Positions 14,566 through 61,700 of a stretch of DNA of 64,000 nucleotides are shown here, piece by piece. The notes beneath the pieces were generated by a model. It ran no database searches. It worked only from the letters and a program-made list of their open reading frames with translations, and was not told the origin of the DNA. The DNA is taken from IMG/VR virus record IMGVR_UViG_3300021962_000036, positions 1-64,000 of that record; one strand, given 5' to 3'. The position numbers and the translations under genes are program-made. The first letter of the stretch is position 1. Each line of letters starts with the position of its first letter. The DNA is from a virus.

Positions 14566-14638
14566 GCCTTCTTAGCTCAATTGGTAGAGCAGCTGATTTG
14601 TACTCAGCAGGTTGTGGGTTCAACTCCTACAGAAGGCT
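14566..14638 (+). tRNA. tRNA-Thr(UGU)
   Basis: Cloverleaf GCCTTCT/AGAAGGC, anticodon arm GCTGA-TTTGTAC-TCAGC, T loop TTCAACT; CCA not encoded. Confidence 0.92.
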
Positions 14639-15237: not shown

Positions 15238-15312
15238 GGCGGGGTAGACTGGAGTTGGTCCCAGCTTGGTCTCATAAGCCAAACAACGTAGGTTCAAATC
15301 CTACCCCCGCAA
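15238..15312 (+). tRNA. tRNA-Met(CAU), initiator-like
   Basis: GCGGGG/CCCCGC acceptor with 1:72 mismatch, loop CTCATAA, T loop TTCAAAT. Confidence 0.85.
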
Positions 15313-24717: not shown

Positions 24718-26367
24718 ATGAGTACACCCGTATTAAACAATGGACTGTTCTTACGCGACACTAACTACAAAGTTGGTTCTCACGTAGATTCTTACCATTT
24801 GGTGAACATGCTTAAGAGTACTGACCCTATGGATTTAGGACCAGTTGACTTATGGGCACAGACCCAAAAGGTAGAAATGCCTCTTTATCAGATGGCTTCT
24901 TTTGGTGGTAAAAACACTATTCTTGTAGACAACCCTCGTGGTGAGTACAAATGGCAAACTCCTATCGTACAGGATCTTCCTTACGTTGTAGAAGATGTTG
25001 AGCCAGGCGTAGCTGTTCTAGGTCAAGATGGTACTACCTTCAAAATCAAAATTAACAAGCGTGTATTTGGACATGGTGATATCATCACTTATGACAAATA
25101 TAAAGGAGCTGAACTTTACATCACTGCAGAAGATATTCTTCCTTCAGGTGATGGTTTTGTGTACACTGTTCAATTAGTGAACAATGACAACACTAAGGCT
25201 CTTGACAAAAAATACTTGAAACCAGGTACTAAATTCTTCAGAAAAGGTTCTGCTCGTGGTGAGTATGGTGAGCGTTTCTCTGACATTGGAGAATTGAGCG
25301 CAGGTTTCCGTGAGTACTACAACTATGTTGGTGGTGCTGAAGCTCACGTACACTATTCAGTTTCTTCTCGCGCAGAAATGATGATGAAAGGTGGAATGAA
25401 TGCAGATGGTACAGTTCCTGTAACTGAGATCTGGAAATCATTTGACGCTAACATCGCAAAAGATCCATCTTTGACTAACATTGATGCAATGGTAGCTAAA
25501 ATGGGTAAAGACTACATCAAGAAAGCTTATGACAATGGTACATTGACTCGTTCATTTGTAACTAAAATGGAATCTGCACACTTGAGCAAAATTGCTAATG
25601 ACATTGAGACCTACTTAATGTGGGGACAAGGTGGACGTATTAAGCAAGATGGTCCAGATGATATCAGATTGTCTACTGGTCTTTGGGCACAGTTGGATAA
25701 CTCTTTCAAACGTATCTACAACAAAGGTTCATTCAATTTAGAGTTGTTCCGTTCTGAGATCTTCAACTTCTACAATGGTAAAGTTGACTTCAAAGGACCA
25801 GATCCAAATCGTCAAATCATTGTTCAAACTGGTATGGCTGGTATGAAGATGGTGAATGAGGCAATCAAGAAAGAAGCATTCAGCACTGCTGGATCTGGTA
25901 CTTCTTTATTTGCTGACATGAGCAAGTCTGGTTTAGGTGCTATCTCTGGTAACAACGCAATGGATTTGAATTTTGGATTTGCTTTCACTAGCTACACTAT
26001 TCCTTTCTTAGCTAACGTTAAGTTTGTGTTGAACCCAGCATTTGACAACGTACACACTAATGACATTGAAAACCCAATCATTGATGGTTTCCCATTGTCT
26101 TCTTATAACTTCATCGTGTTTGACATCACTGACAACACCAATGACAACATTTACTTGTTGAAATTGAAGTGGGATAGTGAAATGAAATGGTTCTACCAAA
26201 ATGGAACTATGGATTACATGGGAAGAACTCAAGGTTTTGCATCTTCAGGTAATTTCAATGGTTATAGAGTATTTATGACTCAGACTATGCCTTCTATCTG
26301 GGTTAAAGACCCTACTAAAGTTCTCAAAATTGTTATGAGAAATCCTATCACTGGAGGATCATTCTAA
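24718..26367 (+). CDS. major capsid protein
   Basis: 549 aa with high-expression codon bias; follows portal and scaffold; YLMWGQGG, STGLWAQLD, SIWVKDPTK resemble crAss-like MCPs. Confidence 0.85.
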   Translation: MSTPVLNNGLFLRDTNYKVGSHVDSYHLVNMLKSTDPMDLGPVDLWAQTQKVEMPLYQMASFGGKNTILVDNPRGEYKWQTPIVQDLPYVVEDVEPGVAVLGQDGTTFKIKINKRVFGHGDIITYDKYKGAELYITAEDILPSGDGFVYTVQLVNNDNTKALDKKYLKPGTKFFRKGSARGEYGERFSDIGELSAGFREYYNYVGGAEAHVHYSVSSRAEMMMKGGMNADGTVPVTEIWKSFDANIAKDPSLTNIDAMVAKMGKDYIKKAYDNGTLTRSFVTKMESAHLSKIANDIETYLMWGQGGRIKQDGPDDIRLSTGLWAQLDNSFKRIYNKGSFNLELFRSEIFNFYNGKVDFKGPDPNRQIIVQTGMAGMKMVNEAIKKEAFSTAGSGTSLFADMSKSGLGAISGNNAMDLNFGFAFTSYTIPFLANVKFVLNPAFDNVHTNDIENPIIDGFPLSSYNFIVFDITDNTNDNIYLLKLKWDSEMKWFYQNGTMDYMGRTQGFASSGNFNGYRVFMTQTMPSIWVKDPTKVLKIVMRNPITGGSF

Positions 26368-26390
26368 GGATCCTTGAAGGCACTAAGCAA

Positions 26391-26551
26391 ACCTGGGGGA
26401 ACGCAAACCCCCAGGTCCCTGCTTTTAAAGCAAGACTCCACCTCCTCACGTCAGGGTTAAACTTGACAAATACTTGCCTGGGTTAATTCCCAGGTTCTCC
26501 TGAGAAGCAACTACCTTGACGTGGTTCAGGAGCTTTAAACTAGAAGTTGCT
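26391..26551 (+). ncRNA. structured intergenic RNA ending in an HDV-like double pseudoknot
   Basis: Hairpins ACCTGGGG/CCCCAGGT and CCTGGG/CCCAGG; nested P1, P2 and P3 helices at 26497-26551. Confidence 0.6.
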
Positions 26552-26599
26552 AAAAACAGAAAGAAAAAGAAGAAAATAATTAACCAACAAAAACAAATT

Positions 26600-27616
26600 A
26601 TGGAAGTAACAATGATTGAAAAACATCAGACCTTTAAAAGGTCAAGTACTCTAGCAGTACGTCCGTTCATTGACACAATGAATTCTAACATGGGTCTTGA
26701 AAAGTATGAAATGGTACTTTTTGAAGGAGTGTTCCATGAGGAACAGTTAGCATGTTTAGAAAACAATGGTATCAAAAGATACGTAACAGGATTGAATGAA
26801 TTTGCTCCTGAGATCAAACAATTAGATGAAGATGAAAGAGAAGCAGCAATTAAGCAGATTCGCATGACTGTTGCTCAACTTGAAAAAGAACTTGCATCTA
26901 ATGTGTTAGATCCAACTGATGAACATTTCTGGAACAAAGTAAAATTACTTAGACCAGACAATGATGAGTTTTGGAGTAAAATCATTATGAGATTTGGTAA
27001 TGAACCAATCTATTTAGATCCTGCAAATGATCCTTATGACTTGATTAAGCTAAAAGCTATTGAAGCTGGTGGTTTTTCTGCTGTCGTAAAGAATCTTGAA
27101 GTAGCAAGAACATCTCCTGTACCTCCTAAGTTTTACTTGGATAAGTATGAAGAAACTGCTTCTGTAAGAACTGAAGTTAAAAAATTACGTAATAAGGCAT
27201 TGTCTGAATTACAAAAGTTATTTGATAAGAACACAAACAAGTTGTTCTATGTATGTAAAGTAGTAGATGGTAACTCAACGCAGTACAAAAAGTCTACACC
27301 ACTTGACATACTTTATGACAACATGGATAAATACATTAATGGTGAAACTGTAGATAAAGACAAACGTAAAACTGCAGAAAGATTCCTAGATGTATGTTTA
27401 ATGGATATGGAAACATTGAAATTAAGATCTCTTGTTAAGGATGCAAACTTCTATAAGATTATTGCTACCAGAGCTGATGGATTTATCTATCACATGAAGA
27501 GCAGTAGCTTATTGGGTAAAAACTCTTCTGATGTTGTAGAACATTTGAAGAATCCTTTAAACGAAGAAACATTGGTAGATATTACAAAAAATGTAGAGAA
27601 ATACTGGAATAACTAA
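26600..27616 (+). CDS. conserved post-capsid head-module protein
   Basis: Start moved to ATG 26600 (MEVTMIEK); position after the MCP. Confidence 0.75.
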   Translation: MEVTMIEKHQTFKRSSTLAVRPFIDTMNSNMGLEKYEMVLFEGVFHEEQLACLENNGIKRYVTGLNEFAPEIKQLDEDEREAAIKQIRMTVAQLEKELASNVLDPTDEHFWNKVKLLRPDNDEFWSKIIMRFGNEPIYLDPANDPYDLIKLKAIEAGGFSAVVKNLEVARTSPVPPKFYLDKYEETASVRTEVKKLRNKALSELQKLFDKNTNKLFYVCKVVDGNSTQYKKSTPLDILYDNMDKYINGETVDKDKRKTAERFLDVCLMDMETLKLRSLVKDANFYKIIATRADGFIYHMKSSSLLGKNSSDVVEHLKNPLNEETLVDITKNVEKYWNN

Positions 27617-58767: not shown

Positions 58768-61700
58768 ATGGCATGTCAAATACAAACTGACAAGTACACT
58801 TCAGTTGTACTTAACTTAATTAAATTAGACCCTTCAGTATATAGTAATTTTGATAACGCTTCAAAGTTTATACTTGGCAGTGCATTGACACCTGAGCAAA
58901 AGATGATGTCATTGCATAACATGGCATATATCTACAAGGGCCTGGCTGGTATTGATAATAAATTTTACAATGCTGGAAATGCTGAAGGTATCATTAGTGC
59001 TGTTGTATTAATGGATGATCCATCAAAGTATGTGTCAAGTGTTAGTGAAATATTAGGTGTCAAGAAACCTTCAGCTTTAAAAGTTGAGAGTATTTCTAAA
59101 GCAATTGATAAGCTATCTTCTAAGAAGAACATCACACGTCAAGATTTAATTTCTTCTGAAGGTATACTTACATCTGTAAAAAACTATTTCAGTGTTACAG
59201 TATTTCCTACTAACGAAGAAAGAGAGCAATTACTAAATGAATTTTCTACTGCAATTAAAACTGCAATTACAGAACATGATTCACCTCAAGCTCACAAAGA
59301 CTTCTTAATCAAGCAAGTAGATGAAGCAATAAATTCTTTAAGAAAATCTTCTAGTTTTATTCCATTGTCAGATATTGCTAATCTAGCAGATTTGAACAAT
59401 GTATTGATTACTTTGACAAATGGTCAAATGGTTGAGGGCGTTAGACAAGATGAGCAATTTAAAATTATTACAAGTGATGGTTCATTACAAACAGTAGAAG
59501 CATCACAGATTCTTACAGCAAAAGATGCACGTGTTGCAGATAACTCAAGAAGTAATGCTGGAGAACAAGTATTTCAAGAACACACTTTACTTTCTAGTTT
59601 TTCAATTAAAGCTGTTGATTCAGCGGATCAATTTGAATTAGAAAAGAAATTGGCTAACATGAAAAATCCACAAGCTGGTATTAAAATTCATGCAGTCAAG
59701 TTAAGCGATGTAGCAGATAGAAGAGTAGAACGTATACAAGAAGCTGCAAAACAAAATCCTAAGTATTCATCTCTAGAGAATAGAGAACATGAGACTTTTG
59801 AAAATGCTACACAAATAAAAGCATTACAATCATCTTCTTCTAAGAAGATTATGACTGTGTCTAGACCTAAAGCAAGTGAACAACAGTTTGTTCTTGTTGG
59901 TGAGATTATTGGAAGTGGTGAGAAATTTTATATGTATTCTTCTGACAACTTTGTTTTTGTTAGTAGTGATAACACAACAGAAAGAGTTGACTTTACAAAT
60001 CCAGAACATATGGAATTGGTTAAGTCTCTTGCTGTAAAGAACACAAAAGAAGGAAACAAATCATTGTCTGATACAGATATCATTGCAATGTCTGAGTCTA
60101 ATAAATTATTCCAAGGTTTTAAAGCAAGTCTTTCTGACAAGGTTGCAAGTTTATCTGATAACTCACTTGATGTTACTAGTGAATTTTTTAATGCTTATGA
60201 AGCTAGTTCAAAAAGAACAGACATAAACAAAAAACAATTATTAAAGAATGAGATTGAAGTAGATACTACTTTATCTAAACCTTTGACAGTTGTTACAATG
60301 GTAGATGGAGTTATTGCTAATACAGAAGTAGTTAGTGTACCATTCATTTATACAAAAGTAAAAAATGACCCATACATCTTAAAACCATTCTTGGCAAAAG
60401 GGCAACTTATTCAATTAGAAAATGGTGCTACTGTTTCTCAAGAAGTATACGCAAGTGATGTGTTAGGTATTAATCCTTCTGAGATACAAGGTAAAATTGT
60501 AAAACCAGAGCATGGTAATCAACTAAACATATTGTTACGTTTCAACAATGATGGTACAATTGGATATAGAAGTATTGCTCCTGTATTACAAATGTCTCAG
60601 CAAGTAGAGTTTGCAAAATTCATTGTATCATTGGCTAATATTCTTCAGACATCTGCAAACAGAACTGGTGATATTAGAAACTTTGATAGAAACTCATATG
60701 GTTTTAAGTTTTACAATAAAGCAAAACAAGGACCTAATGATGACAATAGAGCACCATTGCGTGTAAACTTTGCAACATCAAAAGCAGGACAGTTACAAAT
60801 AGAAATAAGACCAATGGACAAACAAGGTCCTTATGGTTTTATTGCTGAAACAGAAAACAAGAATCAATTTAACTTTCCAGTTAATGAAGCTATTATAACA
60901 AACTTAGCTAAAGCATTACTAGGAAAGGGTAATTTAGTTAATCAAGTAAAAGAAGCATATCCTGCTTTGAAGACTTTGGATTTAACAAATACAAAAGACT
61001 TAGTTACATTCTATGAGCAGGTAAACAAATTAAGTAATTCAGAAACTGCACTTCCTGTTTTAAAACAGTTAAGTGATAGTATTGAGAAAGCTCAAAAAGA
61101 ATTTGCTGAATACTTGGTTAATAATATTATAAACAAACTTGCTGAAAGAACAACAATGTTCCCAGAGTTTGTAGAACAATTAAAGAAAGACTTTACATTC
61201 AATGGTGTGTACAGACCAGAATTGTTAGTGGCTGACACTGATGAATCAGGTGTATTATATCCTAGAATAGAATATGCACAACCTGCAGAACGCAAAGAGT
61301 ATCGTGAAGATCTTGCAAACTTTAAAATATTACAAGCAAACAGTAAGAAGTTTACAGTAGTACCAAAAGCTGCAACTCCACAAGTTACAAAATCACAAGA
61401 AGTATTAACTCCAATTGTAGAAAGTGAAAAGATTCACAAACAAGAACCTTTAAATACAATTGAAGATGACACTACAGATATTCCTGATATTGAAGTATTC
61501 TCTTTAGTTGGGGATGAGAATGTTATTGTAGAGACAGATGAACAAAGATTAGCAGCATCTGAGTGGTTGTCACAATCTTTACCACAATTTGAAATTGATA
61601 ATGGTTCTCTAGCAGACATTATTGATCTTACTAAATTAGACGGTACTGTTCTTGGTGCATTTAAAGATAGAGTTATCTATTTAAATAATGCATTAAAAGG

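Follow-up and report, generated by a model that had tools for sequence, protein, structure and literature searches.

A Candidate HDV-like Ribozyme with a Flipped Core behind the Capsid Gene of crAss-like Phages

Theta ribozymes are minimal HDV-like ribozymes of the Caudoviricetes (Kienbeck et al. 2024, PMC10879173), and the part of that work on which we draw describes a set that comes mostly from gut phages and in which, for 58% of occurrences, the cleavage site is no more than 5 nt away from the 3' end of a tRNA. The rows given there follow a common plan of P1, a joining segment, P2, ACC or GCC, T, NC, NCGY, GGT or GGC, P1', a dinucleotide GG, GA or GC, 5-8 nt, a segment of the CTAA or CCAA kind and P2', and every one of the ~130 rows in part 1 of the 60 parts of Supplementary Data 2 starts with G. 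This G1 is counted among approximately six invariant bases in the sections of a review (PMC8495972) that are cited here, in which the G.U wobble at the cleavage site is called essential in HDV-like ribozymes. An HDV-like ribozyme of an Ackermannviridae phage cleaves fast, according to the cited excerpt of PMC13635239, with a P1.1 that consists of U:A plus U:U, so a P1.1 with a single Watson-Crick pair is workable, and RNA viruses with self-cleaving ribozymes in their 5' UTRs are described in the cited excerpt of PMC13725137. In the literature on phage HDV-like ribozymes, theta ribozymes and ribozymes of crAss-like phages or Crassvirales, we found no description of the flipped-core form presented below, in which the pair at the cleavage site begins with C (a C1 form in the theta descriptor is possible), and among the Crassvirales papers checked for ribozymes, introns were the sole mention.

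The stretch of DNA analysed here, called the window, is the first 64 kb of a virus record of 119,946 bases that is rated 99% complete. In Table 1, we have listed the features of the locus and of the element that lies between the major capsid gene and the next gene. The capsid gene is recognized by Pfam Crass_capsid at E 5e-33 and its PHROG is that of a major head protein, while PHROG and Pfam searches with the protein of the downstream gene returned no family. The frame of this second gene is open from a TTG at 26516, and its relatives show a conserved start, ATGGAAGTAACAATG. The spacer between the two genes measures 232 bases and is strongly structured, with an MFE of -72.2 kcal/mol and a z-score of -4.06, and 0 of 200 shuffles gave as low a fold. 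A hairpin at the place of H1 is present in nearly all of the capsid relatives, and the same motif as CTCCACCTCC, or a similar one, stands upstream of the element in many relatives and also in L268 and L323. By eye, the relatives have a hairpin of other sequence at the place of H2, and a stable helix ending 0-3 nt before P1 was seen in nearly all inspected members (also by eye, with no tally); in the window, H3 ends 2 nt before the predicted cut. From the end of the element to the ATG at 26600 there are 48 nt. A scan limited to sigma-70-type promoters found no separate promoter for the spacer module in the window. The two tRNA genes of the window (14566-14638 and 15238-15312, both on the + strand, at 69.8 and 41.4 bits) lie far from the element, which is not within 5 nt of a tRNA 3' end, and no HDV-like element adjoins either of them.

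Table 1. Features of the capsid-to-next-gene region and of the HDV-type element (window coordinates)
Feature	Position	Strand	Basis
Major capsid protein gene, 549 aa, crAss type	24718..26367	+	ORF; Pfam PF23898 Crass_capsid, PHROG 11589
Hairpin H1, terminator-like, 9-pair stem then CCCTGCTTTT	26391..26416	+	terminator scan; paired in MFE fold
Pyrimidine-rich motif CTCCACCTCC, conserved	26436..26445	+	read from sequence; recurs in relatives
Hairpin H2, GTCAGG / CTTGAC	26450..26467	+	read from sequence
Hairpin H3, CCTGGG / CCCAGG	26477..26494	+	sequence, MFE fold
Predicted cut, T26496 / C26497, at the 5' edge of P1	26496..26497	+	inferred from HDV-like architecture
P1 5' strand CTCCTGA, C26497 = +1	26497..26503	+	pairs with 26526-26532
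P2 5' strand AGCAACT	26506..26512	+	pairs with 26545-26551
P3 ACC/GGT (26513-26515 / 26523-26525) with L3 TTGACGT (26516-26522)	26513..26525	+	sequence
P1 3' strand TCAGGAG	26526..26532	+	G26532 pairs with C26497
J1/4 CT	26533..26534	+	C26533 = P1.1 partner of G26518
J4/2 CTAGA, C26540 = candidate catalytic cytosine	26540..26544	+	position and motif as in theta rows
P2 3' strand AGTTGCT	26545..26551	+	sequence, covariation
A-rich leader, unstructured, without Shine-Dalgarno	26552..26599	+	read from sequence; relatives similar
Downstream structural-module gene, 338 aa from ATG 26600	26600..27616	+	ORF

The element (26497-26551, 55 bases, + strand) has the order of a nested double pseudoknot of the HDV type, P1-P2-P3-L3-P3'-P1'-P1.1-(P4)-J4/2-P2', and is read as CTCCTGA, GA, AGCAACT, ACC, T, TG, ACGT, GGT, TCAGGAG, CT, TTAAA, CTAGA and AGTTGCT. 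An earlier note on this DNA had placed the three helices, L3, the CT after P1' and C26540 on this strand and had seen no P4, and all of these are where it put them, to the base. Positions 1 and 6 of L3 are U and G, and P1.1 consists of one Watson-Crick pair, G26518-C26533, plus U26517 opposite U26534. The features of the minimal theta form (absence of P4, short J1/2, P3 and J4/2) can be recognized in the window, but position 3 of L3 is G and not C. The window also has C1 in place of the G1 of theta elements, and CT as the P1.1 partner where theta elements have a G with G, A or C after it. HDV-like ribozymes have a purine at +1 in a G.U or G-C pair, and the window has C26497 paired with G26532; because this defining feature of the family fails, the element is not filed as a member of it. 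The J4/2 segment, which the earlier note had taken to be one base too long, is not deviant, as its 5 nt lie within the published theta range (CTAAC, CTAAT). The L3 of CPEB3 resembles that of the window apart from the swapped base.

Several other ways of reading the same bases were considered. The MFE fold of the window prefers to pair 26448-26458 with 26513-26523, which excludes P3 and L3 and with which H2 competes. This alternative helix has 11 pairs (CACGTCAGGGT with ACCTTGACGTG), and because the complement that it needs was seen, by eye, only in the closest relatives, it is at most a local off-state. A register in which T-A would stand at +1 and the P1.1 partner would be GC was dropped by eye, since L3 offers no bases complementary to it. 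The AGGAG within P1' was rejected as a Shine-Dalgarno sequence because these bases covary with their P1 partners and the start codon is 68 nt away. A resemblance to a pistol ribozyme sequence was likewise considered and abandoned, as pistol is absent from the Rfam matches at E<=10 and the helices follow one another in the HDV order. The pyrimidine-rich motif, CTCCACCT(CC) (window 26436-26445), stands ~50-60 nt upstream of the predicted cut and is followed by two hairpins; it occurs in L268, L323 and many capsid relatives and does not change in step with P1', and a pairing of CTCCACCTCC with P1' was rejected by eye, the motif remaining constant while P1' changes. CTCCACCT(CC) resembles the 3' end of 16S rRNA.

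Taken alone, the window is weak evidence for the element, and the match is mildly unlikely. A descriptor with a 7-bp P1, a 6-7-bp P2, a 3-bp P3, a 7-nt L3 and one P1.1 pair found exactly one site on both strands of the 64 kb, namely 26497-26551; over 25 dinucleotide shuffles it found 0.04 sites per shuffle with Watson-Crick pairs only (one shuffle of 25 with a match) and 1.88 with G-U pairs allowed. It is therefore the covariation in relatives that has to carry the case. The search with HDV-like models that the earlier note proposed was run with Rfam and returned no ribozyme family for 26300-26700 even at E<=10, nor any for the whole window at E<=0.05 or at the gathering threshold. A blastn search of the region against deposited phages gave no match, and the theta core pattern RCCTBCNCGYGGY had 0 matches in the window. 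Model R3, which was made from 38 canonical theta elements (a narrow seed set with one L3 sequence), aligned with the window element at 26498-26531 in the right register, with the first pair dropped and a score of only 11.9 bits (E 3.8). Rfam and the canonical-theta model miss the element because the G1 rule fails in it, as part of a coupled flip. By comparison, a model built on the element itself (R1) has a single occurrence in the 119,946-base genome, at 86.4 bits; a second R1 match in the window, at 60473 with E 0.55, was taken as chance.

The viral contig collection holds at least 596 capsid relatives, from which 80 loci were kept. R1 is a model of P2 and P3 that forced P4-bearing forms into a wrong 3' alignment, and it was used for detection alone; it found the element in 27 of the 80 loci, which are the closer relatives. 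Capsid identity is 82-100% in the element-bearing loci versus 74-80% in L029-L080, and within the latter range only L033, at 92% capsid identity, carries the element. Motif scans with the P1 strands free, whose patterns put no constraint on the P1 5' strand, P2 or P4, led to further copies in the same phage group and in unrelated phages, and two copies in bacterial MAG contigs were among 19 pattern matches (one genome per species); a loose pattern scan gave mostly chance matches. Eleven of the 56 parsed candidates were left out by eye as chance or opposite-strand matches, the criteria being an odd L3, the lack of CT or AT after P1' and a coding-like or GC-rich context. These were the second window site, the second L026 site, L054, L062, L063, L117, L125, L141, L167, L313 and L319, the last being the least certain. 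Three MAFFT alignments in which P4-less and P4-bearing forms were mixed (A1, A3 and A4) misplaced P1 or P4 and were excluded from the counts.

In the alignment A2, which contains 21 P4-less elements aligned without structural guidance, 94.4% of the cells pair as compared to 86.1% in shuffles (0 of 500 reach the observed value) and to 31-47% with slid partners, it being understood that the covariation sets were picked by requiring P1, P2 and P3 to pair and that many of their rows are close kin. Changes on both sides were found in 9 of the 18 pairs of A2 (P1 2/7, P2 7/7), and its further pair types are not above those of shuffles (284/500). The larger alignment A6 has 45 elements (42 distinct rows) from several phage groups and was fitted to a model of P1 and P3, so that P1.1 and P2 stand outside the model; its row L268 is misaligned. 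In it, 99.8% of the cells pair versus 86.3% in shuffles, and both sides have changed in 7 of 11 pairs, comprising five of seven in P1, one of three in P3 and the P1.1 pair. At the first P3 pair, 37 rows have A-U and 5 have G-C, the P1.1 pair is G-C in 41 rows and U-A in one, and a script parse found positions 2-6 of P2 to be paired in 42-44 of the 45 elements. P4 hairpins are present in some lineages and absent in others, vary in sequence and often have GNRA loops. The covariation check that the earlier note had called for gave changes on both sides in P1 (A2 and A6), P2 (A2) and P3 (A6). The HDV-type fold is real and conserved, and it is the relatives that settle the matter.

We consider it probable, at approximately 0.6, that the element is a minimal, P4-less HDV-like self-cleaving ribozyme that separates the capsid message, and that it belongs to a previously unrecognised sister group of the theta ribozymes with a flipped core. 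In the sequences compared, the C-G first pair is a family-wide trait of this group that is coupled with the P1.1 flip. All 42 distinct A6 rows have C-G as their first P1 pair, while P1 positions 2-6 vary freely in them. In a tally of 56 elements that was blind to the first pair, 52 have CT or AT after P1' (J1/4 is CT in 50 and AT in two) and all 52 have C-G; the other four have unpaired first positions and odd loops and were taken as chance. The scan pattern had left the last P1' base free, and in 13 stretches without P1 this base, read by eye, is G in 3, C in 5, T in 3 and A in 2. The presence of an invariant first pair beside P1 pairs that covary freely argues for a constraint at the would-be cut site. 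The C-G pair noticed in the earlier note is consequently genuine but is no quirk of this copy, and the swapped P1.1 pair is likewise real and family-wide.

The flip involves three stacked positions, with C1-G37 in place of G1.U37, G22-C38 in place of C22-G38 and U.U in place of the second P1.1 pair, and pattern scans, one of which looked for C1-G37 beside the canonical CC/GG P1.1, found no mixed forms. Of 104 distinct canonical stretches from the same collection, 95 have a P1, and their +1 base is G in 84 and A in 11; among 18 stretches that match a pattern ending in GGG, the 13 that have a P1 complement fit a canonical 6-nt P1' followed by GG. The sequence C-Y-A-R precedes P2' in 44 of 45 distinct members of the flipped-core group, the exception being L278. 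At L278:282-345, TATGAG replaces the TCTAAG of the close relatives L267 and L282 in an otherwise intact element, which thereby lacks the junction cytosine; this copy may have decayed. L3 reads T/G-T-G-A-C-G-T, and in 7 of the 56 tallied elements its position 1, where one would expect the U of a U.G reverse wobble, is G (GTGACGT). The base at -1 is A in 31, T in 19 and C in 6 of the 56 elements and is never G, the base that is ranked poorest before the cut in the cited part of PMC1874588. We regard it as slightly better than an even chance that these elements are an active, distinct HDV-like class in which the cleavage-site pair and P1.1 are both inverted (C1-G37, G22-C38, U.U), that G1.U37 is accordingly one of two workable solutions and that phages carry the whole as a portable cutting cassette.

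The genomic contexts of the members are diverse. In the crAss-like group, ~45-60 nt always separate the element from the conserved start of the structural gene that follows it. The earlier note described it as lying right after the capsid gene, which is true of the window but does not extend to L014, L025, L027 and L028, where a stretch beginning with ATG intervenes and the distance from the capsid stop is 370-520 nt. L312 has an array of six tRNAs, and the element takes up the 59 nt that separate tRNA-Asn from tRNA-Thr, with its P1 beginning 1 nt past the CCA encoded in tRNA-Asn, which is the theta context. A location beside tRNAs, which the earlier note had ascribed to theta ribozymes, applies to the 58% of their occurrences mentioned above (PMC10879173, in the part cited) and to this one flipped-core member. 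A viral contig of 617 kb has seven copies (L361-L364, L368, L369 and L371), each 6-10 nt before a repeated gene start, ATGAAACC...; the copies are of two sequence types and the repeated start is ATGAAACCAATACC.... In L332 the element starts right after an intrinsic terminator with a T-run. G001 is a 171-kb phage without a relative of the window capsid, and its element (L262:1501-1560) lies in an ORF-poor stretch of ~940 nt; on the same strand, ~550 nt upstream, there is a twister-P1 match (L262:884-953) at 61.8 bits and E 7e-13, the gathering score being 67.2. A weaker twister-P1 match occurs downstream in G001 on the same strand (L262:2934-2989; 39 bits, E 2.6e-6). Cleavage is favoured by such contexts, in particular the tRNA spacer in L312, the twister neighbour in G001 and the seven copies in the 617-kb contig.

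A second group of loci (L262, L267, L268, L278, L282, L323, L329 and L342) has a layout of its own, in which a conserved GGTTGAAATTCC hairpin, which is T-arm-like, comes first, 30-90 nt before the cut, and is followed by a variable hairpin and then by AAAAT abutting the cut site. Such a layout suggests that an RNA lies upstream and that the element would generate its 3' end. Upstream of the element in L329 (L329:403-544, minus strand) there is a weak match to BTnc231, a Bacteroides sRNA (33.3 bits, E 7e-4, gathering score 80.4). Distant capsid relatives (L037:4202-4260 and ten further loci, alignment A7) have a different conserved RNA in the same slot, a three-way junction with 17 predicted pairs, of which 6 have changes on both sides, and with a TGATCA loop; another loop of it, CTTGCAA, may pair with an upstream GCAA as a pseudoknot. 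Six loci that carry the A7 RNA gave no Rfam match at E<=0.1.

If the element of the window cleaves, the course of events may be envisaged as follows. A late transcript would traverse the capsid gene, read past H1, which is weak and terminator-like, and reach the element, which would fold into the nested double pseudoknot that the covariation shows. C26540, acting as general acid, would protonate the leaving group, and the chain would be cut between U26496 and C26497. The upstream product would be a capsid message ending in H3 plus UU with a 2',3'-cyclic phosphate, and the downstream product would have a 5'-OH, followed by the compact ribozyme fold, the A-rich leader and the next structural gene. 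The likely benefit would be that the capsid message, which is very abundant, no longer shares its stability and translation with the genes that follow, and elsewhere the same cassette would trim a tRNA 3' end or head repeated genes. The element of the window is in this sense probably a new variant that cuts the capsid message from the next one. The earlier note's reading as a variant ribozyme is supported by the HDV fold, the theta layout and the family-wide swaps, and its activity is predicted from sequence.

A part of this evidence can be turned to a different use. The same double pseudoknot could serve in the 5' leader of the downstream gene as a structural element that does not cleave, catalysis having been lost or never acquired, and could act, for example, as a ribonuclease barrier, as an insulator of folding or as a binding site through which translation is tuned. 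No member has the G1 purine or the cleavage-site wobble that are held to be required, none of the catalogued ribozyme models matches (the canonical-theta model reaches the 11.9 bits given above), and the downstream start codon is always close, as in the 48 nt of the window and the 6-10 nt of the 617-kb contig, all of which suits a purely structural role. Such a role leaves unexplained, however, why the J4/2 cytosine motif is so strict (44/45), why the L3 bases are shared with active theta ribozymes, why G is avoided at -1 and why the element should be placed exactly at a tRNA 3' end in a tight array, and the contrast of an invariant first pair with a covarying P1 points instead to a constraint at a cut site. 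We consider a structural job without cleavage to be unlikely.

Still less probable, in our estimate, is that the element cleaves so that a small non-coding RNA module, composed of the pyrimidine-rich motif and the two hairpins (26436-26496), receives its 3' end, a reading that overlaps with the separation of messages. The recurrence of CTCCACCT(CC) and two hairpins ahead of the element in L268, L323 and the crAss-like group is consistent with such a module, as are the arrangement of GGTTGAAATTCC, variable hairpin and AAAAT before the cut in ORF-poor DNA of the second group and the near-threshold twister match ~550 nt upstream on the same strand in G001. Against this, the module of the window directly follows the capsid stop with no separate sigma-70-type promoter found, the upstream motifs differ between groups, the 5' end of such an RNA is undefined, and Rfam searches of the flanks at E<=0.1 gave nothing but the weak BTnc231 match in L329. 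As for chance complementary words or an ordinary terminator or hairpin region, which could be expected from the frequency of G-U-allowing descriptor matches in shuffled windows (1.88 each) and from the ordinary hairpins that the spacer also holds, this explanation is refuted by the covariation counts, with compensatory changes in P1, P2, P3 and P1.1 over 45 elements in unrelated phages and contexts, and faces the single 86.4-bit occurrence of R1 in the 119,946-base genome as well.

Should the flipped-core elements prove to cleave, the textbook rule of an invariant cut-site G and wobble pair would change, and a natural double-swap variant would become available for mechanistic work on metal binding in the active site. 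Search descriptors for HDV-like ribozymes, which currently fix G1, would be widened, every descriptor search that fixes G1 having in that case overlooked the flipped-core class. There would also be a concrete role for a ribozyme in phage late-gene expression, that of freeing the capsid message from the next. If they do not cleave, they would provide a clear case of a ribozyme fold retained for a structural job.

Among known systems, CPEB3 and the genomic and antigenomic HDV ribozymes share with the element the nested double pseudoknot, the cytosine that starts J4/2 and cleavage at the 5' edge of P1 (predicted in our case), but they have P4 and the G1.U37 wobble, and their Rfam models give no match here at E<=10. 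Synthetic ribozyme insulators serve as message separators or leaders. The likeness to such separators is that a self-cleaving RNA just upstream of an ORF would provide a defined 5' end that is independent of the upstream sequence; the difference is that no phage HDV-like element is known to have this role. The natural examples, in the cited excerpt of PMC13725137, are hammerhead, twister or deltavirus motifs in RNA viruses of eukaryotes, and the others are engineered constructs. The Ackermannviridae ribozyme, as presented in the excerpt of PMC13635239, differs in having P4 and in that its Watson-Crick P1.1 pair is U:A, and resembles the element of the window in that one such pair is stacked on U:U. 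From the theta ribozymes, the flipped-core elements differ in having C at +1 paired with G, where theta elements have G (or A) with U or C; in the G at L3 position 3 that pairs with C, where theta has C with G; in a second P1.1 position of U opposite U; and in that most of them are not beside tRNAs. The two groups are alike in the following: the order and sizes of the regions match those of the window element, which lacks P4, P3 is ACC/GGT or GCC/GGC, L3 has 7 nt in the frame T-NN-ACGT and ends in ACGT, 5-6 nt lead from P1.1 to the cytosine, J4/2 is CTAA or CCAA (+N), and both are borne by phages, usually in non-coding DNA and on the sense strand, with one flipped-core member at a tRNA 3' end.
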